Positions 1 to 63,964 of a stretch of DNA of 64,000 bases are shown here, piece by piece (position 1 is the stretch's first letter; each line of letters opens with the position of its first letter). Origin of the DNA: Escherichia phage vB_EcoM_11B_SA_NWU; sequence record OR062527; one strand, written 5' to 3'. A model generated the notes under the pieces. The model was given only the letters and a program-made list of their open reading frames with translations, was not told where the DNA came from and made no database searches. Made by a program: the position numbers and the translations under genes.

Positions 1-79
1 TCTAAGACCTTCATCTATACGTAACATTTCAAATATATTCATAATACCTCCTAAGTGTTTATAGAAGGTATTTATAAAA

Positions 80-535
80 TTAAAAGAGGTTGTTCATTAT
101 TCGGTAAAGTGAAGGACCCATCACATATTGCCATTGAGTACGAGGAATAAGAGCAAAAGCGTCCATTTCTGGAATCATAACTCCATCTTTATTTTCAAAA
201 TAAGACTCGCAATGGCAATTTCTGAACATCTCATGCTCTACTGGAATCGTATAATAAAATAACTGTAAGTCTTTATTACTAGAATATTTAAATACACCTA
301 GGTCTTCTAGAAGGTCTGGATTATAATTGCTAAAACCGGTCTCTTCTAAGCATTCTCTTTGTGCTGCATCTAATGCGCTTAAATCAGAATTTTCTACGCG
401 GCCCTTTGGAATATCCCAGCGATGTGCCATCATTCCAGGCTTACGAGAACCAGTAACCCGACCCATAAATAAATCTTTATCTTCTGTCATAAAGATAATA
501 CCAGCTGATAGTGTTTTCATTTTAATTTCCTGCAT
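80..535 (-). CDS. nudE: Nudix hydrolase NudE (T4 e.1-like); likely true start at ATG 520 (SD AGGAAA)
   Basis: Nudix box ...AAQRECLEETGF... (REx2EE); 151/146 aa; position at start of e-region. Confidence 0.85.
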   Translation of the reverse strand: MQEIKMKTLSAGIIFMTEDKDLFMGRVTGSRKPGMMAHRWDIPKGRVENSDLSALDAAQRECLEETGFSNYNPDLLEDLGVFKYSSNKDLQLFYYTIPVEHEMFRNCHCESYFENKDGVMIPEMDAFALIPRTQWQYVMGPSLYRIMNNLF

Positions 536-1005
536 TCAGTGATAAAGTTATTTAAATTTTGAATATATTTCTTTTCATCAAAAATCTTTTGTTGTCTGCG
601 TAGCCGCCATGGCATTTCAATGAACGTGTACCATATCCCAGATAATATTGCTGCAGTAAAAATATTAACAAGTATGGTTAAAAGAATCCAATCTCCTATT
701 CTGTCCATTGGATTTTTTATAAAAAAGTAAAATATGAATGATGTCACAGGAAGACTAATAATATACCATAGAATCATAATTTTATCTGTGAACCAATCAG
801 CGTTCGTTAACTTAGCGCGACCATTATGAATACATACGAATTTATCATCTGTTATAATAGATGGCTTAGCTGCTTGATATCCCATTCTAAACTCCCTAAT
901 CAACAAATTTTTCATATCTTCGGAACAACCATTCCAGTCAACTCTATCAACTGAAATGCCATCATCCCCATCATCTAAATCATACCAGCGAGTTTTTAAA
1001 ATCAT
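517..1005 (-). CDS. small membrane protein (e.x early region), 162 aa, 2 predicted TM helices
   Basis: ORF with hydrophobic helices; stop overlaps nudE start; C-terminus ...FITECRKLK encodes SD of next gene. Confidence 0.6.
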   Translation of the reverse strand: MILKTRWYDLDDGDDGISVDRVDWNGCSEDMKNLLIREFRMGYQAAKPSIITDDKFVCIHNGRAKLTNADWFTDKIMILWYIISLPVTSFIFYFFIKNPMDRIGDWILLTILVNIFTAAILSGIWYTFIEMPWRLRRQQKIFDEKKYIQNLNNFITECRKLK

Positions 1006-1364
1006 TTAATTTTCCTACAATCACTCACAAACTCTTCCATTGATTCTTTTTCAATATAAGACATGTAGCTATTATATTCCTTTAATTGTATTTTGTAATC
1101 TTTTTTTCTTTGCCAATTTATTTTAAAATTATCATAATGAAAATATAACATAGTACCAAAGAATGAAAATAATGAAATCGCTATAGTATAATGAAGTTCA
1201 CTCCAAACCTCTGTTATAATTACTGTGCCGTCAATGTTTAAAATAAAACAGTCAATTAACAATCCAATAAGACTACCAGCAAGAGCTGCAAATACTGATA
1301 CGGCAAGAATTAACAGTGCCTCAGGAAACGAATATTTAACTTTATTTAGTTTTGGCTTTTGCAT
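1002..1364 (-). CDS. small membrane protein, 120 aa, paralog-like of neighbours
   Basis: TM helices; ATGA start/stop overlap with downstream gene; C-terminus ...FVSDCRKIK. Confidence 0.6.
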   Translation of the reverse strand: MQKPKLNKVKYSFPEALLILAVSVFAALAGSLIGLLIDCFILNIDGTVIITEVWSELHYTIAISLFSFFGTMLYFHYDNFKINWQRKKDYKIQLKEYNSYMSYIEKESMEEFVSDCRKIK

Positions 1365-1738
1365 CGTGATTCCTTAACAAATTTCATAATTTCATCAAAT
1401 TCATACATATCTAATTTAAGCTGATGTTCCTTTTTAATCTTTTTACACTGAGCTTTCCAATCACGTACACGTTTACGATAGTGTCTTCCTTGATACCAAT
1501 ATCCTATCCAATTTATAGGTACTAATAAAAGCGGAACTACTAATGGAAGAATTAATACTAACAAAAATACTGCGTCTGATTCAATATCAGTAGTAACATC
1601 TATAACTATTCCAATAATCATTAGGACTACAAATGATATAGCTGTCACAGGACCTATTAATATATCAGTAGGAATTAGCTGGCGCTTTAATTCATACTTC
1701 ACAGGTTTACTTGGAAGGTATAGTGATGGCTTTGACAT
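1346..1738 (-). CDS. small membrane protein, about 130 aa (ORF-track start at 1759 is TTG; ATG at 1738 preferred)
   Basis: TM helices; SD AAGGAA upstream of ATG; C-terminus ...FVKESRCKSQN. Confidence 0.55.
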   Translation of the reverse strand: MSKPSLYLPSKPVKYELKRQLIPTDILIGPVTAISFVVLMIIGIVIDVTTDIESDAVFLLVLILPLVVPLLLVPINWIGYWYQGRHYRKRVRDWKAQCKKIKKEHQLKLDMYEFDEIMKFVKESRCKSQN

Positions 1739-2240
1739 ATTCTCTACATTCCTTAACAAATTTTTCTAATAATAAATCGCTTTCAAAATTGGGATTTTCC
1801 ACGAATTTATCAAAAAGATCATCAACAATAGTCAAGATATTCTTTTTACTAAGAATACGTTTATTTTCATGTTTTGTTTCAGAGTCAACTATAAGAGTAA
1901 AGAAATATTTCTTGCCCTGAAATTTTACAGTAGTATCAATATAGAATAAATTTGACTTTTGTAAATTACGTTTAAACCATGCATCACTTAAACTATAAAC
2001 GCCAAGATAATCATAATCGTCGTTTAAATAACAGACCGTCCATTCAGGAGAAACAAAATCAGTAAATTCAACGTCAAAATCGCATGTTAATAAATGAATT
2101 GATTCAATACTGTTAATAAGTATTCCAGGACGTATTAAAGACTTTTTACCTCTAGAAAATCTTCCAGAAAGACTTTCATCAGTTTCATATGAAGAACCCC
2201 CAATAATAATTACGTCCTTCTGCCATACGTTTAAGAGCAT
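1707..2240 (-). CDS. hypothetical protein 177 aa
   Basis: long ORF, single Met; no clear SD; overlapped at 5' end by a 46-aa ORF with strong SD. Confidence 0.5.
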   Translation of the reverse strand: MLLNVWQKDVIIIGGSSYETDESLSGRFSRGKKSLIRPGILINSIESIHLLTCDFDVEFTDFVSPEWTVCYLNDDYDYLGVYSLSDAWFKRNLQKSNLFYIDTTVKFQGKKYFFTLIVDSETKHENKRILSKKNILTIVDDLFDKFVENPNFESDLLLEKFVKECREYVKAITIPSK

Positions 2241-2322
2241 TTAATAATTGGTCTGGAACATCAACCTGTCTTTGGAACTCTTCAAACATTGAATTGAAAT
2301 CACTTTGCATTTTCATTTTCAT
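2182..2322 (-). CDS. small ORF 46 aa (MKMKMQSDF...) overlapping start of the 177-aa gene
   Basis: strong SD (TAGGAAT) before ATG; different frame from 1707..2240. Confidence 0.3.
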
Positions 2323-2363
2323 TCCTACTTACTCCAAGTAATAGGGGCCGAAGCCCCTTATCA

Positions 2364-2957
2364 TTATTTCAGAGAATTAATATATTCCTGAACATCGGCA
2401 GAGGTAGTTTCAACCCCAGAAATATTACCATTAAAGGTTTCAACTCGAGCAAGAGTATCTTCAATATCAACCTTAGTCAGTGCTGCAATTTCAACTACAT
2501 CATCAGCAGTACTAATTCCAAGGGCATTCGCGGCGCGAGTTTCACGAATATATTCCAATTTAACTGCAAGTTCTTGGCGAGCATCATCTAACTCAACTAC
2601 TTTCTTGGCAATTTCAATTCGCATTTCAGCATAACCATCAGCTTTAGTAGTCAACTGCTCAGCTGTTCGACGATATAGTAAACCGAGTTTAGCATGCATT
2701 GTTACATCTTGACCTTCAGAAAGAAGCTTGCGAATTTCGCGCTCTTTTGATTCGGCCTGCTTATTCTTTTCGACAATAAGTTCACGAATACGCTTTTCTT
2801 CGTTAATAGATTTAATGGAAGCAGTTTTTAGGTCTTTAATCTTATCAAGTAGTTTTGCTGCTGCAGCAGTATACTGTTCTTCAACAGATAGATTTTTAGC
2901 CATAGCAGAACCAAGTTTAGTGCGAATAAACTCAACAATTTTCTTCAGTGTGTTCAT
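2364..2957 (-). CDS. coiled-coil protein 197 aa, function unknown
   Basis: heptad-rich helical sequence; SD AAGGAAAT before ATG; early promoter and stem-loop upstream. Confidence 0.6.
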
Positions 2958-3029
2958 AGTATTTCCTTAGGTTAATTAAGATTTAAAATCTGTGAGAGTA
3001 TTAGTATTATACTCTATCCTCAAGTTATA

Positions 3030-3064
3030 GGCTCATAATATCTCAATCATGAGCCTATGTAAAC
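3030..3064 (-). promoter_or_regulatory. early promoter GTTTAC-18-TATTAT overlapped by stem-loop (PeSL-like)
   Basis: -35 GTTTAC, 18-nt spacer, -10 TATTAT; inverted repeat AGGCTCAT/ATGAGCCT. Confidence 0.55.
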
Positions 3065-3340
3065 TTATTTCATATTATTGAAATATTCTTCTGCAATTTC
3101 GTCGTTATCATGATAAACTTTAGAAGACAGTTTAACATAACCTTCAGCAGTGAACATGTTAATCACAACCTTTACAGTATACCACTGACCGTCTTCATTA
3201 CCCATTACTGCATAAGTTTCAAACATCGGATGATCAGGACCGATAACTTTAATATCATTCACTGTACGACCAAAATCTTCTGAAACACATTTCATAAAGA
3301 AGTTGAACAGTTCGCCGTAATTATCCATTTCATTCTCCAA
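3065..3340 (-). CDS. hypothetical protein 91 aa
   Basis: ORF preceded by early promoter GTTTAC-18-TACTAT and SD GGAGAA. Confidence 0.55.
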   Translation of the reverse strand: MENEMDNYGELFNFFMKCVSEDFGRTVNDIKVIGPDHPMFETYAVMGNEDGQWYTVKVVINMFTAEGYVKLSSKVYHDNDEIAEEYFNNMK

Positions 3341-3365
3341 GTTGTTTTCTGTATCAGTAGTTGAT

Positions 3366-3401
3366 AGTTGTATAGTACCACGGAAGAACAGGGATGTAAA
3401 C
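3366..3401 (-). promoter_or_regulatory. early promoter GTTTAC-18-TACTAT
   Basis: shares flanks TTCACAAA..GTTTACAT and CTATCAACTACTGA with copy at 7478. Confidence 0.55.
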
Positions 3402-3532
3402 AGTTTTGTGAAAAAATTTTTAAAAATTTTTAGGAAATTCTAGGGCAGGGAGGGGCAATTAAAAGATAGGATAATATATTATAAAGGGTAGAAACTAAAT
3501 GATGCCTAGAGAGGCCCGGAAAGGCCTAGATA

Positions 3533-3561
3533 CCAAAAAGCCCCAACCTTTTGGTCGGGGC
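3533..3561 (-). terminator. intrinsic terminator hairpin, copy A (downstream of CTS-protein gene)
   Basis: 9-bp GC stem GCCCCGACC/GGUUGGGGC, 4-nt loop, U-run. Confidence 0.7.
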
Positions 3562-3569
3562 TAAGAATG

Positions 3570-4043
3570 TTATTTGATTTGTTTAGCAGACCAAATGCGG
3601 TCTTTAATAATTTTTTGGATGTCTTCAACATACTCAAGAGAGTGAACATGTGGATTATCTTTGAAACTATAAGCACGGGCTAACTTTTGGCCTTCGGTTT
3701 TGATTACTAAAAGCTCTTTAAGGATAGCTTCATATTTAGAGATAATTCCTTTAACGATATTTTTTTCTTGTGCAGCTTTAGGATCTGCTTTAGGAGCAGG
3801 TTTACCCGAAGCCTTTGCAAAAGCAGCGCCAGTAGCAACTAAACTTTTCCAGGCCATACTAACTGCATTTCCCGTAAATCCTTCTGCTTTCATGTCGCGA
3901 GCAAATTGGAATCGTGATTCGTCAGAAGCATCTTTATAGGAATATTTACCCGCTGCAATGGCTGCTTTTGCAACAGCTTGAATTTCGGTGCTAGATGCTT
4001 CATTTAACACCGCTTCATTTAAAAATTGAGCATATGATTTCAT
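3570..4043 (-). CDS. internal-protein-like capsid-targeted protein, 157 aa (ORF-track N-terminal extension to 4208 rejected)
   Basis: N-terminus MKSYAQFLNE-AVLNE resembles T4 internal-protein CTS with LxE protease sites; Ala/Lys-rich basic body; SD AGGAAATAAG; late promoter TATAAATA upstream. Confidence 0.6.
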   Translation of the reverse strand: MKSYAQFLNEAVLNEASSTEIQAVAKAAIAAGKYSYKDASDESRFQFARDMKAEGFTGNAVSMAWKSLVATGAAFAKASGKPAPKADPKAAQEKNIVKGIISKYEAILKELLVIKTEGQKLARAYSFKDNPHVHSLEYVEDIQKIIKDRIWSAKQIK

Positions 4044-4083
4044 CTTATTTCCTGTTTTAATTCGTGGATTTAATATACTACTA

Positions 4084-4091
4084 TATTTATA
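4084..4091 (-). promoter_or_regulatory. late promoter TATAAATA for CTS-protein gene
   Basis: exact TATAAATA on minus strand 41 nt upstream of ATG. Confidence 0.55.
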
Positions 4092-4120
4092 CCAAAAAGC
4101 CCCAACCTTTCGGTCGGGGC
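4092..4120 (-). terminator. intrinsic terminator hairpin, copy B (near-identical to copy A)
   Basis: same stem, GAAA loop, U-run; 35 of 36 nt identical to copy A. Confidence 0.7.
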
Positions 4121-4164
4121 TAAGCCTTGCGGCAACCTTGTCGGGGTTCCACCTGCTAAGGCAA

Positions 4165-4330
4165 GTGTTTGTACGAAACGCCGGGATTCGAACCCGGTTA
4201 TCAAGCAATTGACGCTACTCAATATTTTTAAAAGGCCATATCTCGACCATATCCGAACGTTCCGTCAAAAACGCTACTCGGCTTACGGCAAAGATATTTC
4301 CTCGAATCGATAATTCGGTGCGCCGTTTCT
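4165..4330 (-). ncRNA. tRNA-like stable RNA(s), T4 species 1/2 RNA-like
   Basis: T-arm GGTTCGAATCC and acceptor-like 3' end but too long for one canonical tRNA; internal repeat GAGUAGCGU. Confidence 0.35.
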
Positions 4331-4432
4331 GCTGTGATATAAGGGGGCATTAACAAAACATAAAGATTTATTAATGCCAGTCCTTAAACAGGGAACATCA
4401 GTCCGACGACTTACCGGTAGCGACCCGGTTTC

Positions 4433-4783
4433 TTAATATTCTTTTAAAGCATCAATTTGTTCACGGCGTAAACGCCATAAATCAATTGCTTCATAAGCAG
4501 ATTCAACATTTCGAATTAGCCGACATTTATGTAAAGACTTATGATTTTGATATTGTGTAGATAACGGAATTTTATCTAAAAGGTCTTTACGTTCAAAGTA
4601 TTCGTAACCATCTAAGCCAAATGAACGATTTTTGAGAAATTGCCAATGACCAAATTCGTTTTCGACATAAACATAATCTGCATGCTGATAAAGCAAATTA
4701 ATTACACGTTCAGAAATAACAGTATCATTATGATTAAAATAGAATGTTAAATCATGAACTACTAAATAAACATTACCTTTCAT
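4433..4783 (-). CDS. hypothetical protein 116 aa inside tRNA region
   Basis: ORF with SD GAGGAAAA; starts right after tRNA-Arg 3' end. Confidence 0.5.
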   Translation of the reverse strand: MKGNVYLVVHDLTFYFNHNDTVISERVINLLYQHADYVYVENEFGHWQFLKNRSFGLDGYEYFERKDLLDKIPLSTQYQNHKSLHKCRLIRNVESAYEAIDLWRLRREQIDALKEY

Positions 4784-4801
4784 ATTTTCCTCACTTATAA
4801 T

Positions 4802-4877
4802 TGGTCGAGGCAGTAGGGATCGAACCTACGACCCAGGACTTAGAAGGTCCTTGCTCTTCCTTCTGAGCTATGCCCCG
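4802..4877 (-). tRNA. tRNA-Arg (anticodon UCU)
   Basis: manual fold: 7-bp acceptor, D and T arms, anticodon loop CUUCUAA, encoded CCA. Confidence 0.8.
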
Positions 4878-4880
4878 TAA

Positions 4881-5531
4881 TTAAAATTTCATTTTTCGAC
4901 CTTTAAACCATCCTTCTGGAATTGGGTCAGTTTTCTTAATACGTTTAGAAACTTTTTCATCTAATGAATGAATCCACATGGTTCCAAACTGAGAATTGTA
5001 TTTTCCAGAAGAATTAATCTTGGCTGAATCAGATATTTTCTTTTTCGTTTCTTTGTTATGTAGTTTACCTAAAAATCCAAAAGTTGGTTTTCTTATTCCA
5101 TTTTCCCATTGAATTTTCATAGATTCAGAAACTTTTTGCGATACCTTCGAATAGTCTCTTCTTAAGTTAGATTCTCTTACTCCAGATGAACAAATTGATG
5201 CAAAATTTGGACTATTACAAATATGATCCCAACCGCCTTCGCCACCAATCTTAAGATTATAAACGTTGCCTTTTAAAAATTCTTCTGTTACAATTTCAAG
5301 CTCTTTTGCGTACATTTCTTTAGCAGAAGAAAATTCATACAAAATTTCTTTTGTGAAATTATTTATTCCATACTTAGCAATTGCTCTTTTTATTCTTTTA
5401 CCAGAACCCATATAACCATCATTTATATTAGATGTTTTATGAGCTCCAACATAAACAGTTCCATTGATTAAATTAGTTATTTTATAAATCAGATAATGCA
5501 TATCTCCTCCATAGTTGAGATTATTATACAT
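4881..5531 (-). CDS. segB: GIY-YIG homing endonuclease (SegB-like)
   Basis: N-terminal HYLIYKITNLINGTVYVGAHK...DGYMGSG GIY-YIG module; embedded in tRNA cluster as in T4. Confidence 0.75.
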   Translation of the reverse strand: MYNNLNYGGDMHYLIYKITNLINGTVYVGAHKTSNINDGYMGSGKRIKRAIAKYGINNFTKEILYEFSSAKEMYAKELEIVTEEFLKGNVYNLKIGGEGGWDHICNSPNFASICSSGVRESNLRRDYSKVSQKVSESMKIQWENGIRKPTFGFLGKLHNKETKKKISDSAKINSSGKYNSQFGTMWIHSLDEKVSKRIKKTDPIPEGWFKGRKMKF

Positions 5532-5558
5532 TATTCCATTCCAATTGTAAACAAAAAA

Positions 5559-5631
5559 GGTGACCGATGGGAGTTGAACCCATGACTACGAGAATCACAA
5601 TCTCGAGTTCTACCAACTGAACTACGGCCAC
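5559..5631 (-). tRNA. tRNA-His (anticodon GUG), no encoded CCA
   Basis: manual fold: acceptor GUGGCCG/CGGUCAC, anticodon loop UUGUGAU, T-loop UUCAACU; non-canonical -1 position. Confidence 0.6.
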
Positions 5632-5745
5632 ATTAATACCTACTCCAACAATCAAGATGTCTTCACACGAAATTAAGAGAAGAGTGATCAGTTCAACCCC
5701 TATAATCGCGTCAAGTAGATATTAATGTGACAGTTGTCACAAATT

Positions 5746-5820
5746 TGGCGGACGTGATAGGATTCGAACCTATAACCAATCGCTTAACAGGCGATCGCTC
5801 TGCCATTGAGCTACACATCC
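5746..5820 (-). tRNA. tRNA-Asn (anticodon GUU)
   Basis: manual fold: acceptor GGAUGUG/CACGUCC, anticodon loop CUGUUAA, CCA encoded. Confidence 0.75.
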
Positions 5821-5824
5821 AAAT

Positions 5825-5911
5825 TGGTGGGGAGTGATGGAGTCGAACCACCCGAGTCGTAATGACAATGAATTTACAGTCCACACCGCTACCTCTACGG
5901 GATAACTCCCC
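5825..5911 (-). tRNA. tRNA-Tyr (anticodon GUA), long variable arm
   Basis: acceptor GGGGAGU/ACUCCCC, anticodon loop CUGUAAA, 87 nt type II. Confidence 0.7.
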
Positions 5912-5920
5912 AAATTAATT

Positions 5921-5995
5921 TGGTGGCCCTGGGTGGAATTGAACCACCATCTGGCGATTATGAGTCGCTTGCTTGAACCTTCCAGCTACAGGGCC
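5921..5995 (-). tRNA. tRNA-Met or Ile2 (anticodon CAU)
   Basis: acceptor GGCCCUG/CAGGGCC, anticodon loop CUCAUAA, CCA encoded. Confidence 0.7.
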
Positions 5996-5996
5996 T

Positions 5997-6072
5997 TGGT
6001 GCTGATTGACGGAATCGAACCGCCGACATCCTCATTACAAGTGAGGTGCTCTACCTACTGAGCTAAATCAGC
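5997..6072 (-). tRNA. tRNA-Thr (anticodon UGU)
   Basis: acceptor GCUGAUU/AAUCAGC, anticodon loop CUUGUAA. Confidence 0.8.
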
Positions 6073-6077
6073 AAAAC

Positions 6078-6167
6078 TGGCGGAGGCGATAGGATTCGAA
6101 CCTATGAGTCGCCGGAGCGACTGCCGGTTTTCAAGACCGGTGCATTCAACCACTCTGCCACGCCTCC
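6078..6167 (-). tRNA. tRNA-Ser (anticodon UGA), type II
   Basis: acceptor GGAGGCG/CGCCUCC, anticodon loop CUUGAAA, long variable arm. Confidence 0.8.
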
Positions 6168-6169
6168 AG

Positions 6170-6243
6170 TCTCCATACAAGGATTTGAACCTTGGACCTC
6201 CTGATCCCAAATCAGGCGCTCTACCAAACTGAGCTACACGGAG
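6170..6243 (-). tRNA. tRNA-Pro (anticodon UGG), no encoded CCA
   Basis: acceptor CUCCGUG/UAUGGAG, anticodon loop UUUGGGA; abuts tRNA-Ser. Confidence 0.75.
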
Positions 6244-6253
6244 TAAATTAAAT

Positions 6254-6327
<74 letters not shown>

Positions 6328-6332
6328 AAATT

Positions 6333-6419
6333 TGGTGCGAGAAGTGGGACTCGAACCCACAAGGAAATCATTCCGCAGCATTTTAAGTGCTGTGCCTTTA
6401 CCAATTTGACCATTCTCGC
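6333..6419 (-). tRNA. tRNA-Leu (anticodon UAA), type II
   Basis: acceptor GCGAGAA/UUCUCGC, anticodon loop CUUAAAA. Confidence 0.8.
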
Positions 6420-6420
6420 G

Positions 6421-6493
6421 CTGGGAATAAAGGATTCGAACCTTTGCATCCTGGAATCAAAATCCAGTGCCTTACCAACTTGGCTAATTCCCA
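6421..6493 (-). tRNA. tRNA-Gln (anticodon UUG), no encoded CCA
   Basis: acceptor UGGGAAU/AUUCCCA, anticodon loop UUUUGAU. Confidence 0.75.
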
Positions 6494-6590
6494 ATTATTA
6501 ACAAAGGCTCTTTAGCAAGAACCCTTGATGATAGAGGGTATTAATCAGTGCGGTATGAGTTAATAATAACAAATAATTCTTAAAGCATAT

Positions 6591-6878
6591 TTACCATTTA
6601 TGATAATACATATTTACGATGCATTCAAGGCCCAAAGGATTCCTGAAAATATCATATTCAAGAGGACCTTTTTCTGTTTCAATAAAGAAATCAAAATTTA
6701 CTGTATTAAATTTACGGTCTTCCTTCACTAATTTAACTTGAGAAGATGAACGGTCAACATAAACCTTTTCAACTTCAAAACATGTTAAAACGCCATAATC
6801 ATCAATCAAGGCTTTAGCCGCGTCTTGATCATATTTATATCCATTTTCAATGGACGATACTTTAGCATAAAGAATCAT
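6591..6878 (-). CDS. hypothetical protein 95 aa (hypervariable locus between tRNAs and 57B)
   Basis: ORF in operon with two upstream small ORFs; no recognisable motif. Confidence 0.5.
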   Translation of the reverse strand: MILYAKVSSIENGYKYDQDAAKALIDDYGVLTCFEVEKVYVDRSSSQVKLVKEDRKFNTVNFDFFIETEKGPLEYDIFRNPLGLECIVNMYYHKW

Positions 6879-6881
6879 TAT

Positions 6882-7271
6882 TTACCCTTCATCAACAATA
6901 GTATGAGTGTGGGCATTTACAATTTGCCACCAATCAAAGCGATTAGAACCATACATCGGTTTGTTTTCATTTTCTTTGATAATATCACGAAGTTCATCTT
7001 CAGTAGCGGCTTTCGCGATTAAATCAGCATATCCACCACGAGGATAATAATTATCACCTGCAAAAAGTAAAAAGTTTGGTTTAATGTTATTGAACTCTTC
7101 AAGAGTAATAACTGTTCCACCAGGTTGAACAATCTCTACATATTTATATCCTAATTTTTGAGCAGCATCTACTGCTTCAAGCAGGGTATCATGAGCCCAT
7201 CCAATTTGGCAATCTGGCTTTTCAGATGGATTAGCCTGATAATCCGCGTACACTTTATACATTCTATTCAC
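6882..7271 (-). CDS. hypothetical protein 129 aa
   Basis: ORF, start overlaps stop of upstream 61-aa ORF. Confidence 0.5.
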   Translation of the reverse strand: MNRMYKVYADYQANPSEKPDCQIGWAHDTLLEAVDAAQKLGYKYVEIVQPGGTVITLEEFNNIKPNFLLFAGDNYYPRGGYADLIAKAATEDELRDIIKENENKPMYGSNRFDWWQIVNAHTHTIVDEG

Positions 7272-7449
7272 CTTTAGAAATTTTATCCATAACGATAGCG
7301 ATTAAACCAATTAAAAATGCTACTACAAGTGAAAAAACATTTTCTGCTGTAGTTAATAATCCGCATATAAATCCAACAAACATTGAAAAACTAAAAGCGG
7401 AAGCAGAAATTGCAATAGCAACATTTCGAATTAATTCACAGCGTTTCAT
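7264..7449 (-). CDS. small hydrophobic membrane protein 61 aa
   Basis: two hydrophobic helices; SD GAGGAGAA; early promoter GTTTAC-18-TACTAT upstream. Confidence 0.5.
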   Translation of the reverse strand: MKRCELIRNVAIAISASAFSFSMFVGFICGLLTTAENVFSLVVAFLIGLIAIVMDKISKGE

Positions 7450-7477
7450 TTTATTCTCCTCAGTAGTTGATAGGGTA

Positions 7478-7507
7478 ATAGTATCACAACTAAAACCCTA
7501 TGTAAAC
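7478..7507 (-). promoter_or_regulatory. early promoter GTTTAC-18-TACTAT with stem-loop TAGGGT/ACCCTA
   Basis: sigma70-like hexamers; conserved flanks. Confidence 0.55.
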
Positions 7508-7519
7508 AACTTTGTGAAA

Positions 7520-8216
<697 letters not shown>

Positions 8217-8930: not shown

Positions 8931-8979
8931 GTGTTTCTCCTCAAATTTAATTAAGATTATAACACACAAAACTGAAGCA

Positions 8980-9510
8980 TTAAACTTCTGCTATAATTTT
9001 TCCATCTTTTTCTACTTGAAAATAGGTGTAAGGAATCGTTGCAGTACATACTAAGGCCGGGTCTGAATCTTCTGTGTAGCTAAATTCTACTTCAGATAGG
9101 TCAGAAACCCAAGGCTTATAAAAATTTATTGACATCACGATTTCAGTTTTACTATTATCTAAAATGTAAAGCGTAATGTACTCAGGACCTGTTTTTTGGG
9201 CAGTATTTTCACCTGTAAGATAGTTACTAGTTCCTAGCATCCATTCATACATTCCTATCCACGACTTAAGTTCTTCATCAACTATAAATCTCACGATGAG
9301 TGGATCGTACTCAAATGTAACTCCTGGACGTTGTGCTCGGCCCAGTCCAAATGGCCCAGTCACGGTATCAGTAACAGGTATTCTAATTCCTGGAATAGGA
9401 ACTGACTGGGCATTTAAAGTAAAAGCAGATGTAGTATTACTATGTGGTATTGATACTACAAAGTTAGTTGTATTTGCTTGGTTAAAAATTTGTTGCAGAG
9501 CTTGCGACAT
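8980..9510 (-). CDS. 3: tail completion/sheath stabilizer gp3 (176 aa; start trimmed from 9591)
   Basis: SD GAGGAA before ATG for MSQALQQ; length and synteny. Confidence 0.75.
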   Translation of the reverse strand: MSQALQQIFNQANTTNFVVSIPHSNTTSAFTLNAQSVPIPGIRIPVTDTVTGPFGLGRAQRPGVTFEYDPLIVRFIVDEELKSWIGMYEWMLGTSNYLTGENTAQKTGPEYITLYILDNSKTEIVMSINFYKPWVSDLSEVEFSYTEDSDPALVCTATIPYTYFQVEKDGKIIAEV

Positions 9511-39474: not shown

Positions 39475-39489
39475 TCTTTGACGATTTAA

Positions 39490-39520
39490 GGGACCTTCGG
39501 GTCCCTTTAGTTGTTTTTAT
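39490..39520 (+). terminator. UUCG-tetraloop hairpin/terminator after gp23
   Basis: GGGACC-UUCG-GGUCCC followed by T-rich run. Confidence 0.6.
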
Positions 39521-39522
39521 GG

Positions 39523-39530
39523 TATAAATA
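39523..39530 (+). promoter_or_regulatory. late promoter TATAAATA (gp24)
   Basis: exact consensus. Confidence 0.6.
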
Positions 39531-39557
39531 AATCATATAAACCAAAAGGAAAGCGCA

Positions 39558-42454: not shown

Positions 42455-43873
42455 TTATGGATAGGTATAGATGATACCAGTTTCTAAAGCAGTTTTATGA
42501 ATGATGTATCCATTACGTGATTCTTGAACATCAACTTCTGGATAGTCTTTCATCATCTTCTGAAGAGTGTAACGATGCAAGTAGTACTTACTATCTGGAT
42601 CGTCAGTTTTCCAATCTTTACCTTCTTCAGTCATTTTTTGGATTTCATCCATAACCCACCAACCGCACCAGATGTAAGCTGAAGTACGGTGTGGAAGAGG
42701 ATGAACATAAGGCAATTCACCTTCTGGTTCCGGAGCAACTTTATCAGTCACTTGAACTTGACCTGTTGTTTTAACTGTTTTGCTATCATAATCAGTTGCT
42801 GCAACGACAGCAGTAACTTCAATAGTTTGACTTCCAACAGATGAGGTATCGACAGTATATACGTTAGTTGACCCTTCTACAGGAGAAGAATCTTTCTTCC
42901 ACGAGTAAGTAATTTGTGCTTCTTCTGGAGCATCCGTAACATTAGCCGTAAATGTAGCCGAAGCATCTTGCTGAACGTTAATAGAAGGAGGAGTCAATGT
43001 AACCTGTGGATTCATTGTCTTCTTATTAACCGTTAATGATACTTCATTCGAAGTAACTTCCTTTTCATTGTAATTTTCAGCAGTTACTTGGGCTACGCAT
43101 TTAATTCTTTTTACTCCACTTGTAGTTGGAGTATAGCTAAATGTAGAGTTAGTTTCTCCACCAACTTGTGAATCATCTACATACCACTGATACGTAGCAG
43201 ATGCTCCATCAGGTTGAGAAGCTAAGGCAGCAGTAAATTGAACTGGGGTTCCAATTACTCCAGCTGAAGGACTATCGGGAGTTACTGCCAAAGTAGTTGT
43301 CTGTGTCTTTTTATTAACAGTCAGTGACACTTCATTAGAAGTAACTTCTTTTGCATCATAATCTGTCGCGGTTACTTGAGCTACACACTTAATTGTTTTA
43401 ACTCCACTTGTGTCAGGAGTGTAATTGAATGTAGCGCTAGTCGCTTCGCTCACAGGAGAACTGTCAACGTACCATTGATACGTAGCAGATGCGCCTGATG
43501 GCTGCGAAGCCAAAGCAGCGGTAAATTTAACAGCTGTTCCAATCACTCCAGCCGCAGGACTAGCAGGAGTTACGGCTAAGGTAGTCGTCTGTGTCTTATT
43601 TTTAACTGTGATAGTTGTTGTCGCTTCAGCCGTTTCCGGGCCTCCTTCAGAAAGTGTATTTGTTGCAACTACTTTAATAGTCTTTTGACCAGCAGGACCT
43701 TTTAATACATAATCAAAAGTTGCTTCAGACCCATCTTGTGGAGCATTATCTACACTCCAAGCATAAGTAATAGTTCCACCTCCAGTTTCACCACTGGGTG
43801 CAGCAGTAAACTGCTTGGTTTCATCAATAACTCCTGACGGTGTTTTAGGAGTTATATCAACTGTAAAAGCCAT
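42455..43873 (-). CDS. hoc: highly immunogenic outer capsid protein Hoc, 472 aa with extra Ig-like domain
   Basis: tandem Ig-like repeats and C-terminal capsid-binding domain; SD AAGGA. Confidence 0.85.
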   Translation of the reverse strand: MAFTVDITPKTPSGVIDETKQFTAAPSGETGGGTITYAWSVDNAPQDGSEATFDYVLKGPAGQKTIKVVATNTLSEGGPETAEATTTITVKNKTQTTTLAVTPASPAAGVIGTAVKFTAALASQPSGASATYQWYVDSSPVSEATSATFNYTPDTSGVKTIKCVAQVTATDYDAKEVTSNEVSLTVNKKTQTTTLAVTPDSPSAGVIGTPVQFTAALASQPDGASATYQWYVDDSQVGGETNSTFSYTPTTSGVKRIKCVAQVTAENYNEKEVTSNEVSLTVNKKTMNPQVTLTPPSINVQQDASATFTANVTDAPEEAQITYSWKKDSSPVEGSTNVYTVDTSSVGSQTIEVTAVVAATDYDSKTVKTTGQVQVTDKVAPEPEGELPYVHPLPHRTSAYIWCGWWVMDEIQKMTEEGKDWKTDDPDSKYYLHRYTLQKMMKDYPEVDVQESRNGYIIHKTALETGIIYTYP

Positions 43874-44584: not shown

Positions 44585-44613
44585 TAGATATATTTATTAC
44601 ATGGTATTTAGAC

Positions 44614-46125
44614 ATGACTGACATTAAAGTACATTTTTATGATTTTAGTCACGTGAGAATTGATTGTGAAGAAAGTACATTTCATGAACTCCGTGATTTC
44701 TTTAGCTTTGAAGCTGATGGGTATCGTTTTAATCCGAAATACAAATATGGCCACTGGGATGGACGAATCCGTCTTTTAGATTATAATCGCCTTCTTCCAT
44801 TCGGCTTAGTCGGGCAAATTAAAAAGTTCTGTGATAACTTTGGCTATAAAGCCTGGATTGACCCACAAATTAACGAAAAAGAAGAATTATCAAGAAAAGA
44901 TTTTGATGAATGGCTTTCTAAATTAGAAATCTATTCAGGAAATAAAAGAATTGAACCACACTGGTATCAAAAAGATGCAGTGTTCGAAGGATTAGTTAAT
45001 CGTCGTAGAATTCTTAATCTTCCAACTTCGGCTGGTAAATCTTTAATTCAAGCTTTGCTTGCACGTTATTATTTGGAAAATTATGAAGGTAAAATTCTTA
45101 TCATTGTTCCAACAACTGCTCTGACAACTCAGATGGCTGATGACTTTGTTGACTATCGTTTATTCAGTCATGCAATGATAAAGAAAATTGGTGGCGGAGC
45201 ATCAAAAGATGATAAATATAAAAATGATGCACCAGTCGTTGTTGGTACATGGCAAACTGTAGTAAAACAACCAAAAGAATGGTTCTCACAGTTTGGAATG
45301 ATGATGAATGATGAATGCCATCTTGCTACAGGAAAAAGTATTTCATCTATCATATCAGGTTTAAATAACTGTATGTTCAAATTTGGTCTATCTGGTTCAT
45401 TACGTGACGGCAAAGCCAATATCATGCAGTATGTTGGAATGTTTGGCGAAATATTTAAGCCAGTAACGACTTCTAAGTTAATGGAAGATGGACAAGTAAC
45501 TGAGCTAAAAATTAATAGTATTTTTCTTCGTTATCCTGATGAGTTCACTACTAAATTAAAGGGAAAAACTTACCAAGAAGAAATAAAAATTATTACGGGG
45601 CTTAGTAAAAGAAATAAATGGATCGCTAAATTAGCTATTAAGCTTGCGCAAAAAGATGAAAACGCTTTTGTCATGTTTAAACATGTATCGCACGGTAAAG
45701 CTATTTTCGATTTAATTAAAAATGAATACGATAAAGTTTATTACGTATCAGGGGAAGTTGATACCGAAACACGCAATATAATGAAAACCTTAGCTGAAAA
45801 TGGTAAAGGAATAATTATAGTAGCTAGTTATGGTGTATTTTCTACTGGTATTTCAGTTAAAAATCTGCATCACGTTGTTTTAGCGCACGGTGTTAAATCA
45901 AAAATCATTGTATTACAAACAATCGGTCGTGTATTACGTAAGCATGGTTCTAAGACAATAGCAACAGTCTGGGACCTCATAGATGATTGCGGTGTTAAGC
46001 CAAAATCTGCTAATACGAAAAAGAAATATGTTCATTTGAACTATCTTTTAAAACACGGCATTGATCGTATTCAGCGCTACGCGGATGAAAAATTTAATTA
46101 CGTAATGAAAACAGTTAATTTATAA
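44614..46125 (+). CDS. uvsW: UvsW helicase
   Basis: Walker A PTSAGKS, DEcH motif NDECH; late promoter at 44577. Confidence 0.9.
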   Translation: MTDIKVHFYDFSHVRIDCEESTFHELRDFFSFEADGYRFNPKYKYGHWDGRIRLLDYNRLLPFGLVGQIKKFCDNFGYKAWIDPQINEKEELSRKDFDEWLSKLEIYSGNKRIEPHWYQKDAVFEGLVNRRRILNLPTSAGKSLIQALLARYYLENYEGKILIIVPTTALTTQMADDFVDYRLFSHAMIKKIGGGASKDDKYKNDAPVVVGTWQTVVKQPKEWFSQFGMMMNDECHLATGKSISSIISGLNNCMFKFGLSGSLRDGKANIMQYVGMFGEIFKPVTTSKLMEDGQVTELKINSIFLRYPDEFTTKLKGKTYQEEIKIITGLSKRNKWIAKLAIKLAQKDENAFVMFKHVSHGKAIFDLIKNEYDKVYYVSGEVDTETRNIMKTLAENGKGIIIVASYGVFSTGISVKNLHHVVLAHGVKSKIIVLQTIGRVLRKHGSKTIATVWDLIDDCGVKPKSANTKKKYVHLNYLLKHGIDRIQRYADEKFNYVMKTVNL

Positions 46126-46604: not shown

Positions 46605-46727
46605 GATTGTCTCCTTTTGAATATAGTAATATTTATAAACCCATTTTAATCCGCATTTCTTGTACACGGATTAAGCAAGCTTCCATCTCTGCTAATAGTC
46701 GAAATACTTCTTTATAATCTGTCATAT

Positions 46728-46955
46728 TTACCCCATATCTCTCATATGCATATCAATGCCCATATCTTTAGAATAAAAATATTCATCAAGATATCCGGCA
46801 AATTTTCCTTTAATATAAAGGACATCTTCACCACATGGGTGGTCGGCCAGGATACGAATATCCTGACGCTTAAGATTATGCTTTTTCATTAAGAATTGAA
46901 TTTCCGTTTCAAATTCTTCTTCATAATTAAAAGCATCATCAATGCTATATCTCAT
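46728..46955 (-). CDS. hypothetical protein (uvsY.-1-like)
   Basis: 75 aa ORF upstream of uvsY. Confidence 0.5.
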   Translation of the reverse strand: MRYSIDDAFNYEEEFETEIQFLMKKHNLKRQDIRILADHPCGEDVLYIKGKFAGYLDEYFYSKDMGIDMHMRDMG

Positions 46956-54751: not shown

Positions 54752-54779
54752 ATGGGGACCGAAAGGTCCCCATATTTTT
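54752..54779. terminator. bidirectional hairpin terminator between gp54 and 96-aa ORF
   Basis: AUGGGGACC-GAAA-GGUCCCCAU followed by T-run. Confidence 0.6.
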
Positions 54780-55068
54780 ATTTACGGAATGAAATAAAAG
54801 CAGCAACTGAAGCAACAGAGGTTTCTTCAATATAAACCTCAATTTTTACCGGAGCTTCTGACTCAAATTTACCTGTTACTACACCTTGGAAAATACTTTC
54901 AGTCTGTTCTGGCTTTGAAAAATTTTCAGAAGGAAAAATTCCAAACTTTTTATCGGTTCCGAAAATTTTAATAAATTCATCATAAACTGCTTCATTGAAA
55001 GCGTTATCAGCGGGAATAACGCCTTCAACGACGAGTTCTTGACCTAAAAAGCGCAAAGAAGATTTCAT
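54778..55068 (-). CDS. hypothetical protein 96 aa downstream of alt genes
   Basis: SD GAGGAA; early promoter GTTTAC-18-TATAGT upstream. Confidence 0.5.
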   Translation of the reverse strand: MKSSLRFLGQELVVEGVIPADNAFNEAVYDEFIKIFGTDKKFGIFPSENFSKPEQTESIFQGVVTGKFESEAPVKIEVYIEETSVASVAAFISFRK

Positions 55069-55099
55069 TTTGTGTTCCTCATGTTATGTCAGTAAAACT

Positions 55100-55129
55100 A
55101 CTATAACACAATACGAGGGACTTGTAAAC
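55100..55129 (-). promoter_or_regulatory. early promoter GTTTAC-18-TATAGT
   Basis: sigma70-like hexamers upstream of 96-aa ORF. Confidence 0.5.
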
Positions 55130-57186
55130 TACATTTTGAACTTTTTAGACATTCTGTTGATGTTAACCAAAGAAGCTAAGATTTGAGAAACTTCGCTTTC
55201 CTCTTCTTTTGATTCTTCTACAAGGAATTGATTAAATCCAGCCATTGGACGAACTTCACCAGTTTCCATTAGATGGTCACCATCATATACCGATTCCTCT
55301 AATTGTTCAGAAGGAGGAACAATCGTGCCTTCAATTAGATACTTATTATAAGCGGTTTCTTTCATCATGTACGTACTTACTTTATTAATCTTCAGTAAAA
55401 TTCCACGCGGCAAAATAACTTCAGCTTCGGATGGAAATCCTGATAAATGACCCGGAACGATAACTTTAACTCGTTCAGCTCCTTTAATTACCATACCTAC
55501 ATTAGTTTCAGCGTCTTCATTCGCATATGTAGAATGACTACCCATATGCATTAAATCTTCAGCATCAACTGAACCTTCTCCTTCACCAGAAAATACTGTT
55601 CCAGCGTCATCTAAAGCCATATAATTTTTACCATATTCACCGAAGATATTTGGCTTGAGTGAAGTAGATACAAAGTTCTTGAAATAGAACATTTTATTTT
55701 CTATATTATGACGTAAAGTTTTAAAAGTAACTTCTTGGCCACGGTAAAGTGTAGTTCCCGGAGGAAGAACTGAACCTTTAGCAAATGCAGAATCCAACGT
55801 CTCAATGTGCTTAATAGCACGTTCCATATATTCTTCACGTGTAGAATCAGGTTTACCTAAAAGGAACGAGTTCATTTCAACATATGAATCTGCGCAATAA
55901 TCTTCAATTACATCAGACTCAGCCTGAGTTAATCCTTTTGGAGTTACTTCAGTGCTTGCATATTCATATGCCTGAGCAGCAGATTCATCAATTAATTTAT
56001 AAATTCCATTCATTACAAATTGAATAATAGCTGTCTTTTCATCTGGTGTAGCTTTAGAACCTTTAACTAAATCATTGACAATTTTCTTAATAACATCAAA
56101 GCTATTAGAAATATTAATGTCAGCAAGATCGCTTAAAATTTTATCAGTTTTATAATCAAAGAATTCTTTATTCTTTAAATATTCTTGAGAACCTTGATAT
56201 GTTATATCGCTCTGCAGCTTGATAGATGGATCGCGTAAACGTGCATGGGCCAATGCAATATGATTTCGGAAGCTTTCGAGTTCATAATCACTAGATTTAA
56301 AACGAGAAGCACTTCTCATACCACCGATAGCTCCTTTGCTAAAGTTTGAACCAACCTGAATAACGCCAGAGTTCATTGGTCCTTCTGCTTTATATACCGG
56401 AACTTTAGATTCAAACTCTTGATATTTCTTAGCAGCGAAGCTATCACCCTGAAGTGAAGCATCAACAGTAGAATATTGAGCTTGTGCTGCTAATCGACGA
56501 CTAATTTTAGTTTTCTGAATAACAGCTTGATCCGTGCGCTTATCATTTTCTAAAGCAATAGAAGCAGCAACAGCAACAGCTTTAGGAACAGCATTACCTG
56601 TTTTAACGTCTACATAAACATCACCAACCTTTGATTCAACTTTTGTGAATAACTCGGTTGAAATAGGAGGTACACCTGGAATGTCTTCTAAATTGGCATT
56701 TTTACGGTAAACCATAATATATGCGTACTTTTTATCATAATCCCAGATTTCCTTTAAAAGAACATATCGACCTGCTCCTTTAGTACGTACTAAACGGTCA
56801 GCAATAACTTGCATTTGACGAGCTGCGCCATTTGTTTTACTTTTTAGTACGCGGAATAGGCATGCATCAATTTTATACTGCTTCATTGTTTGAAGAGCAG
56901 TATCAAAAACAGCATTAATGACGCCAATTGGATTTCCACCCAAGTTTTTAAGCTTAACTAATGATAGTTTCTCATTAACACCTATCATTACGATATGCAT
57001 CATTTTGTCGCCTGGCTTAACGTTTTTATTCGTATCACCGCCAGAGGTGTATGTACAAAATCTAAATCCAGGAAGCACGCTTTCTTCACCTGCTTGAATA
57101 GCAAAAATTTGAGGTATTTTATGCTTAGGATTTAAGTTAACAACCGGCGCCGAAGCGCCGTCAAATAATTCTGTAATAAGTTCCAT
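55129..57186 (-). CDS. Alt-like ADP-ribosyltransferase paralog (685 aa)
   Basis: N-terminus MELITELFD shared with alt; motifs YRGQ, FYFKNFVSTSL, SEAEVILPRG; translationally coupled to upstream alt. Confidence 0.8.
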   Translation of the reverse strand: MELITELFDGASAPVVNLNPKHKIPQIFAIQAGEESVLPGFRFCTYTSGGDTNKNVKPGDKMMHIVMIGVNEKLSLVKLKNLGGNPIGVINAVFDTALQTMKQYKIDACLFRVLKSKTNGAARQMQVIADRLVRTKGAGRYVLLKEIWDYDKKYAYIMVYRKNANLEDIPGVPPISTELFTKVESKVGDVYVDVKTGNAVPKAVAVAASIALENDKRTDQAVIQKTKISRRLAAQAQYSTVDASLQGDSFAAKKYQEFESKVPVYKAEGPMNSGVIQVGSNFSKGAIGGMRSASRFKSSDYELESFRNHIALAHARLRDPSIKLQSDITYQGSQEYLKNKEFFDYKTDKILSDLADINISNSFDVIKKIVNDLVKGSKATPDEKTAIIQFVMNGIYKLIDESAAQAYEYASTEVTPKGLTQAESDVIEDYCADSYVEMNSFLLGKPDSTREEYMERAIKHIETLDSAFAKGSVLPPGTTLYRGQEVTFKTLRHNIENKMFYFKNFVSTSLKPNIFGEYGKNYMALDDAGTVFSGEGEGSVDAEDLMHMGSHSTYANEDAETNVGMVIKGAERVKVIVPGHLSGFPSEAEVILPRGILLKINKVSTYMMKETAYNKYLIEGTIVPPSEQLEESVYDGDHLMETGEVRPMAGFNQFLVEESKEEESEVSQILASLVNINRMSKKFKM

Positions 57187-57189
57187 GAT

Positions 57190-63629: not shown

Positions 63630-63655
63630 TTTTATTCTCCGAGATGTTTAATTGC

Positions 63656-63695
63656 GGTACAGGTATATAATATCATATCCTGTACCAAAGTAAAC
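63656..63695 (-). promoter_or_regulatory. early promoter GTTTAC-17-TATTAT enclosed by stem-loop GGTACAGG/CCTGTACC
   Basis: hexamers plus 8-bp inverted repeat around -10. Confidence 0.55.
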
Positions 63696-63697
63696 AA

Positions 63698-63964
63698 TTA
63701 TTTTACTACTTTCCAGTGTTGCATGTCAAGTTTACCGACTTTTTTCATCTTCTCAATTAAGCGTTCGGCACGTTGGCGAGCTGTAACATAATGCCATTCG
63801 CCTAATTCATTTTGTTCAATTTTTCCAACGATTACTGTATTCAATTCATAAATCCAACCAGTAAAGAAATTATGAACTTGAATTGTAAAGGTGAAATCTG
63901 TTCCCATACCTTCTGTTGTTTCTACTTCAATAATATCACCTTCAACTGCCATTAAGAACCACAT
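63698..63964 (-). CDS. hypothetical protein 88 aa
   Basis: ORF. Confidence 0.45.
   Translation of the reverse strand: MWFLMAVEGDIIEVETTEGMGTDFTFTIQVHNFFTGWIYELNTVIVGKIEQNELGEWHYVTARQRAERLIEKMKKVGKLDMQHWKVVK

Follow-up and report, generated by a model that had tools for sequence, protein, structure and literature searches.

Early promoters of bacteriophage T4 with a GTTTAC-type -35 element are transcribed by the host RNA polymerase as soon as infection begins. In the descriptions attributed to Wilkens and Rueger and to Miller et al. 2003, they reportedly combine this -35 element with a spacer of 17±1 nt and a TAnnAT -10 element that often follows TG, with A/T-rich sequence upstream. Promoter-early stem-loop (PeSL) elements have a layout of stop codon, AT-rich stretch, -35 element, stem-loop over the -10 element, Shine-Dalgarno (SD) sequence and ATG (Arbiol et al. 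2010, PMC2839356), and the consensus for T4/PST is TTTACW-N17-TAYWAT (Comeau et al. 2014, PMC4122927). Terminator activity and mini-circles have been demonstrated only for the RB49/phi1 elements, which have G/C-rich stems (PMC2839356, PMC4122927), and the PeSL authors consider promoter repeats only one of several routes to variation (PMC4122927). The same authors regard the IP locus as the T-even analogue of PeSLs (PMC2839356, PMC4122927); at that locus, according to the accounts of Repoila et al. 1994 given in these two papers, there are repeated early-promoter elements with weak, AT-rich stems. Homologies shorter than 50 bp suffice for recombination in T4 (as cited in PMC2839356).

The DNA analyzed here, called the window below, is a 64,000-nt stretch of Escherichia phage vB_EcoM_11B_SA_NWU (OR062527). 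The motif repeated in it is the published T4/PST PeSL consensus (PMC4122927), the arrangement around the motif is PeSL-like (PMC2839356), and, as with PeSLs, the copies are repeated in hyperplastic regions and are found at indels between close relatives (PMC2839356, PMC4122927). The likeness to PeSLs put forward in an initial annotation of this DNA was therefore borne out in both consensus and layout. The RB49/phi1 PeSLs have G(n)/C(n) stems; those in the window differ in being AT-richer, varied in sequence and without a T-run, and, again unlike PeSLs, two of the six window promoters (3372 and 5523) have no stem. There is no difference between the window promoters and the classical T4 early promoters, to which the hairpin is an addition outside the promoter definition. 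The four sites with hairpins are PeSL-type elements, and all six are T4 early promoters. We put at roughly 85% the probability of the complete reading, that the six sites are T4-type early promoters, four of them in PeSL hairpins, with the hairpins and recombination acting in the roles proposed for them; promoter activity and hairpin function are what we infer from sequence.

The window is a Tequatrovirus (T4-like) segment that spans nudE to gene 30.8, and T4 is collinear with all of it from ~67 kb to 130 kb. Hundreds of Tequatrovirus genomes match bases 1-8000 at 95-96% identity, with wV7 the best match. The left end encodes, on the minus strand, 57A, 57B, trna.4, trna.3, trna.2, eleven tRNAs, a segB-like gene, two small ORFs, e.8 and e.6, and continues to nudE. 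Between 10 and 54 kb there are chiefly virion genes, and from 54 to 64 kb the minus strand encodes alt.-3, two Alt ADP-ribosyltransferases, DNA ligase and 30.1-30.8. An Rfam search of the window returned ten tRNAs only, with no family at any of the promoters.

A search of the window for GTTTAC-N16-19-TANNAT gave five matches, all on the minus strand (3035-3064, 3372-3401, 5523-5552, 7478-7507 and 63667-63695), while dinucleotide shuffles led to an expectation of 0.84 and none of 100 shuffles reached five, an enrichment of about six-fold. A relaxed scan found seven sites with an exact GTTTAC. Six of these were located between genes, on the minus strand and in the orientation of the early genes, and one was within gene 2. 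The five motif matches and the site at 55100, with -10 element TATAGT, make up the six T4-type early promoters:

3035..3064, minus strand: early promoter P3035, GTTTAC, 18-nt spacer, TATTAT; begins directly after the e.8 stop codon
3354..3413, minus strand: 60-nt promoter cassette with P3372 (GTTTAC 3401-3396, TACTAT 3377-3372); precedes e.8; no significant hairpin
5523..5552, minus strand: early promoter P5523, GTTTAC-N18-TATAAT; 6 nt past tRNA-His and before the segB-like GIY-YIG gene; no hairpin
7460..7519, minus strand: 60-nt promoter cassette with P7478 (GTTTAC 7507-7502, TACTAT 7483-7478); precedes trna.4
55100..55129, minus strand: early promoter P55100, GTTTAC-N18-TATAGT; overlaps the TAG stop codon of Alt2
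63667..63695, minus strand: early promoter P63667, GTTTAC-N17-TATTAT; between 30.8 and 30.7

When compared with the T4-type form (-35 GTTTAC/TTTACW, spacer 17±1, -10 TAYWAT), five of these sites agreed exactly and 55100 departed once. The promoters were confined to the e-tRNA-ipI block and the alt-30.x block, with none in the virion block at 10-54 kb, and the sites were conserved in T4, wV7 and IMG/VR relatives. Since the T4 GenBank and RefSeq records have no annotated promoter features, the orthologous promoters were read from the sequence. A generic sigma-70 scan (TTGACA/TATAAT) was uninformative, with 44 and 43 matches compared to 37.9 and 36.7 in shuffles; it performed no better than shuffles, which indicates that the signal is specific to the T4-type -35 element. 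There was also a near-match promoter on the minus strand at 8956-8985 (GTTTAA-N18-TATAAT), in the gap that precedes gene 1 (dNMP kinase). GGAG occurred in the ribosome-binding sites that follow P3372 (3334-3338), P7478 (7456-7462) and P63667 (63635-63639). The T4 endoribonuclease RegB cleaves early mRNAs at this motif, whose presence in these ribosome-binding sites fits early, short-lived messages.

The regions around the promoters were folded as RNA and compared with dinucleotide shuffles by z-score. At four of the six promoters a hairpin bracketed the -10 element (dG about -17 to -20.5 kcal/mol, z -2.6 to -6.1), and at two there was none:

3027..3058, minus strand: hairpin at 3035, ATAGGCTCATGAT/ATTATGAGCCTAT, 13 pairs and a 6-nt loop, 3' arm overlapping the -10 element and predicted +1; dG -20.5 kcal/mol, z -6.1
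7470-7501, minus strand: hairpin at 7478, ATAGGGT/ACCCTAT, within the 7460..7519 cassette; dG -16.9 kcal/mol, z -2.6
55074..55121, minus strand: hairpin at 55100, 3' arm holding the alt.-3 Shine-Dalgarno GAGG (55077-55080), 5' arm upstream of the predicted start; dG -16.8 kcal/mol, z -3.0
63645..63696, minus strand: hairpin at 63667, core GGTACAGG/CCTGTACC (63679-63686 and 63656-63663) bracketing the -10 element; dG -20.1 kcal/mol, z -5.6
Site 3372: no significant hairpin; dG -7.2 kcal/mol, z -0.8
Site 5523: no significant hairpin; dG -6.4 kcal/mol, z +0.2

In all four hairpins the 5' arm was in the spacer and the 3' arm ran from the end of the -10 element across the expected start site. The sequences of the arms were wholly different among sites (AGGCTCAT, TAGGGT, GGTACAGG, GATGAGGTA, GATGGAGA). 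None of the four hairpins was followed by a T-run, the tails being TAACTTGA, CAACTACT, ACACAAAA and GCAATTAA, and none was picked up in terminator scans of the window; on these two grounds intrinsic (rho-independent) terminators were rejected as an explanation.

The initial annotation had listed five minus-strand promoters with a GTTTAC -35 element and TA(C/T)(T/A)AT as the -10 element. All five are present, and the description of the -10 element fits four of them, TATAGT at 55100 being the misfit; the list lacked the copy at 5523-5552. The three inverted repeats named in it exist and fold far better than shuffled sequences (those at 3035, 63667 and 7478), and the hairpin at 55100 was not among them. 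The flanks it described as shared by the copies at 3366 and 7478 proved to be the ends of the two 60-nt cassettes, which start with TTTCACAAARYTGTTTACA and finish with CTATCAACTACTGA (2 matches compared to 0 expected).

Relatives with and without additional genes could be compared at both sites where the window has an empty slot. The first is downstream of P3035, where two more features were identified:

3065..3328, minus strand: e.8 homologue, 87 aa, with P3372 upstream and P3035 downstream; conserved in relatives
2993..3016, minus strand: remnant 'half' promoter, TATAAT inside a GAGTAT/ATACTC repeat, without a -35 element

P3035 in the window now precedes e.6 (197 aa, ATG at 2957), where a small ORF had initially been supposed. 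Both e.8 and e.6 were retained together in 490 of 521 related records, and between them relatives carry from 0 to ~560 extra bases, T4 e.7 included. At least six size classes of the e.8-e.6 span were found in the 56 records sampled: 625-631, 812, 971-987, 1052-1068, 1138-1153 and 1194 nt. The smallest is the empty class, which is the state of the window and accounted for 8 of the 56 sampled records; T4, with e.7, falls in the 971-987 nt class, and the insert of wV7, a 172-aa ORF, is of the order of the 1138-1153 nt class. The half promoter is at the joint where relatives have an e.7-type gene. This deletion joint falls outside any promoter repeat and leaves the half promoter behind.

The hairpin at 3035 was well conserved as a structure. 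In an alignment of 10 homologues, 96% of cells were paired, compared to 29-47% when partners were slid by 1-3 columns, and two pairs had changed in a compensatory manner, with G-C replacing A-U in four sequences and C-G replacing U-A in one. At one locus (L060) an unrelated stem, GAGGAC..TATAAT..GTCCTC, occupied the same position. Because the 3' arm overlaps the -10 element and the predicted +1, the 3035 hairpin would be present only in RNA that reads through from e.8. In the T4 reference records (L003, AF158101, ~3925-3935) an ambiguous N falls within the 5' arm of the hairpin at the e.8|e.7 promoter (TAGGCTNATG).

The cassettes at 3372 and 7478 belong to a larger set. Their 19-nt head was found in 49 IMG/VR stretches, several per genome, and 58 distinct cassettes were found before many different genes; an extended promoter core was present in 4-6 copies per genome in IMG/VR contigs. 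In some IMG/VR phages the same promoter and hairpin were joined to other downstream genes (loci L017 and L023, and the chimera L025). Among 24 dereplicated cassettes of the TTTCACAAA family, pairing of the spacer arm was better with the native downstream arm than with exchanged arms (p = 0.0002), and most stems were weak, with only ~5 of the 24 having stems of at least 7 bp. With these proportions, and with two of the six window promoters lacking a hairpin, the promoter unit often includes the stem-loop but does not require it.

The second empty slot is at 7478, between 57B and trna.4, where the joint is marked by a repeat:

7499..7520, minus strand: 22-nt repeat ATTTCACAAAGTTGTTTACATA, single copy in the window; found on both sides of ipI in T4

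In T4 and wV7 this locus has two promoters and one gene, and in the window it has one promoter and no gene, as determined in an anchor-based census of IP-locus layouts covering T4, wV7 and the window. The window matches the 57B side of T4 up to the 22-nt repeat and the T4 ipI|trna.4 promoter after it, with ipI absent. Since there is one copy of the repeat and no ipI, 7499..7520 is taken as a recombination joint. By its sequence, the window at 7478 is precisely the recombinant of the two ipI-flanking 22-nt promoter repeats of T4. The 57B-trna.4 span in public phage records was 641 nt (empty), ~940-1000, ~1270-1310 or at least 1600 nt, and the empty allele was found in 2 of 43 sampled records that covered both flanks. 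Relatives have from 0 to 3 or more genes here, IP genes each being preceded by the repeat, and 57B and trna.4 were both retained in 428 of 594 records. The site corresponds to the T-even IP locus (57B | ip genes | trna.4) of Repoila et al. 1994, as far as the later papers describe it; compared with that locus, for which relatives have 1 to 3 or more IP genes, the window represents an empty allele with one promoter.

The promoter at 5523 and the segB-like GIY-YIG gene behind it form a 676-nt insertion relative to wV7. Across 9.2 kb of alignment between the window and wV7, all three indels were at GTTTAC promoters. The segB-like gene (4881-5552) is a homing-endonuclease gene with its own GTTTAC promoter, located between tRNA-Arg and tRNA-His; it is missing in wV7, and its middle part is only 69% identical to T4 segB.

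The two sites in the right-hand block were more constant. At 55100 the gene behind the promoter is the following:

54778-55068, minus strand: alt.-3 homologue (DUF5498), behind P55100

This gene was present in all 498 of 498 matching records. In ~20% of relatives, T4 included, there is a break upstream of 55100, inside Alt2, with promoter, hairpin and alt.-3 constant. A cassette swap at window position 55148 was considered and rejected, because T4 alt.-2 shares its last ~20 nt with Alt2, placing the difference within the upstream gene. The T4 orthologue of the hairpin is more stable (-23.0 kcal/mol), and, by reading of the pairing only, the substitutions in the 5' arm at locus L081 (CCCTCG to TCCTTA) would still pair. 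Upstream, at 55129-59283, there are two full-length tandem Alt-type ADP-ribosyltransferase genes (685 and 697 aa, 70-80% repeat identity); T4 has only the remnants alt.-1 and alt.-2 in place of the second. At 63667 the outer stem pairs the -35 element with TAAACA, and the stem core was retained in 14 homologous loci despite divergence of both flanks. Most relatives are contiguous across this site, and in some, homology stops at window 63695-63712, at or just above the -35 element. Gene 30.7 was present in all but one of 60 rows sampled from 626 matching records.

Taken by site, the boundary of an indel or replacement between close relatives coincided with the promoter at 3035, 5523 and 7478, partly at 63667, and not at 55100. 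The cross-genome comparison thus upheld the expectation, stated at the outset, that gene content changes at the promoter boundaries. The accompanying view, that the ORFs behind the promoters are themselves mobile single-gene modules, did not survive it: e.8, e.6, trna.4, alt.-3 and 30.7 are conserved in relatives. From these alignments, the variable part is the slot at the promoter, where IP-type and e.7-type genes appear as insertions in relatives and are absent here. Each gene event may have been a loss or a gain.

Other differences in gene content arose elsewhere. Relative to T4, the whole 64-kb window has about ten, of which 2-3 are at early promoters; the remainder include three seg homing endonucleases, one difference flanked by a duplicated terminator, and others that are tRNA, hoc or alt changes. 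The promoter repeats are one among several routes to gene-content variation. The T4 homing-endonuclease genes segC (with 5.3), segD and segE are missing from the window at ~13770, 39486-39545 and 44601-44619. An intrinsic terminator, AGCCCCGACC(A/G)AAAGGTTGGGGCTTTTT, is present in two direct copies at 3530-3565 and 4089-4124, and between them is a 157-aa ORF (3570-4043) that had no Pfam match; in T4 the terminator is single-copy and the ORF is absent. This ORF has the appearance of a single-gene module with terminator repeats, not promoter repeats, as its boundaries. The adjoining interval, 4089-4433, is 94% identical to the T4 interval holding the small stable RNAs rnaC and rnaD, for which no Rfam family exists. 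A tandem 288-nt duplication in the hoc gene region (43016-43591, 76% identity) adds a domain-sized repeat compared to T4, and the uvsY.-1/uvsY.-2 region has a 101-nt insertion compared to T4, at 46638-46738, with a 30-aa ORF (MTDYKEVFRLLAEMEACLIRVQEMRIKMGL) in it and no GTTTAC promoter close by.

Published expression data are in keeping with early transcription of these genes. The T4 orthologues e.8, e.7, trna.2, trna.3, trna.4, alt.-3, 30.7, segB and ipI are all labelled 'early' in one of two columns that give classes (PMC9697503, supplementary file 4), and this column was read as referring to RNA because the sixth file uses combined labels such as early-RNA_late-Protein for ipI (PMC9697503). 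A limited literature search found expression classes only and no genome-wide map of T4 start sites.

Several other explanations of the promoters and hairpins were weighed. The notion that AT-rich DNA yields the motif copies by chance, to which the uninformative generic sigma-70 scan might lend some color, has practically no probability: it is refuted by the enrichment of the GTTTAC pattern (five matches, a number reached in none of the 100 shuffles), by the location of every match between genes and in the coding orientation of the early genes, and by conservation in T4, wV7 and IMG/VR relatives. It is rather unlikely, though less remote, that promoters and hairpins are independent of each other, ordinary early promoters and 3'-end structures of upstream genes that overlap in gaps of 60-110 nt, with indels being tolerated in these gaps and not driven by repeats. 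Such independence would account for the two promoters of six without hairpins, the weak stems in most cassettes of the wider family, the e.8|e.6 joint outside any repeat and the many other indels in the window that have other causes, and indels may cluster at promoters merely since intergenic gaps tolerate insertions. However, the ipI joint falls exactly inside the 22-nt repeat, identical promoter-hairpin units are found before unrelated genes in other genomes, and unrelated stems bracket the -10 element in the same manner, which argues for a composite unit.

The inverted repeats might instead act as DNA, either as operators at which a dimeric regulator shuts off the early promoters or as cruciform or hairpin sites for a structure-specific nuclease or recombinase. 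The arms do straddle the -10 element, a position from which initiation would be controlled by a bound protein or by cruciform extrusion, and a recombination protein that binds stem-loops was raised as a possibility by Arbiol et al. (PMC2839356). This explanation is nevertheless very improbable: the arms differ completely among sites, so that a single sequence-specific protein cannot read them all, and the compensatory and G-U-compatible changes fit pairing in RNA better, G-T pairs being weak in DNA. An operator or protein-binding palindrome was rejected, as there is no common half-site and the arms are unrelated among sites and covary within a site.

Under the favored interpretation, that of T4-type early promoters combined in part with PeSL-type hairpins, each promoter occupies a short gap that runs from the stop codon of one early gene to the ribosome-binding site of the next, and unmodified host sigma-70 RNA polymerase would read it in the first minute of infection. 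The start is predicted within the 3' arm or beyond it, so that transcripts from the promoter itself would lack the 5' arm and have no hairpin; the hairpin would form only in RNA reading through from the upstream gene. Its most likely role there would be as a 3'-end barrier or attenuator that blocks, ends or stabilizes the transcript and insulates the units from each other. At 55100 the hairpin would hide the ribosome-binding site of alt.-3, leaving alt.-3 untranslated on read-through RNA from Alt.

Transcript-specific hairpins that hide a ribosome-binding site control the T4 genes e, soc, 49 and I-TevI, where early read-through RNA is silent and RNA from the late promoter is translated. The site at 55100 resembles these in having the alt.-3 SD in the 3' arm and the 5' arm only in the longer read-through RNA, and is reversed in polarity, as here it is the locally started early RNA that would be translatable. 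The broader proposal, that the hairpins are not terminators and are a general switch, the start being inside the hairpin so that only read-through RNA folds and is marked, is doubtful. Were it true, read-through RNA would be ended, stabilized or translationally silenced, as the hidden SD at 55100 suggests, and each inserted gene would be transcriptionally and translationally autonomous.

The promoter cores are nearly identical along the genome over 20-60 nt, such that the homology-driven recombination of T4 can cross between copies. Crossovers between cores would delete, insert or swap the intervening gene, with every gene keeping a promoter and expression remaining undisturbed. A dedicated recombination pathway that actively uses the promoter repeats is a further but unlikely possibility.

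What is known of T4 early promoters and PeSLs, already described in 1994, 2010 and 2014, is not altered by these data. For annotation, they add six early promoters and identify two 'empty' cassette sites. IPI counters a host restriction system, and the empty ipI allele may therefore narrow the host range of this phage. As a natural case, the empty ipI locus illustrates the published model cleanly: it is exactly what a crossover between two promoter repeats should produce.
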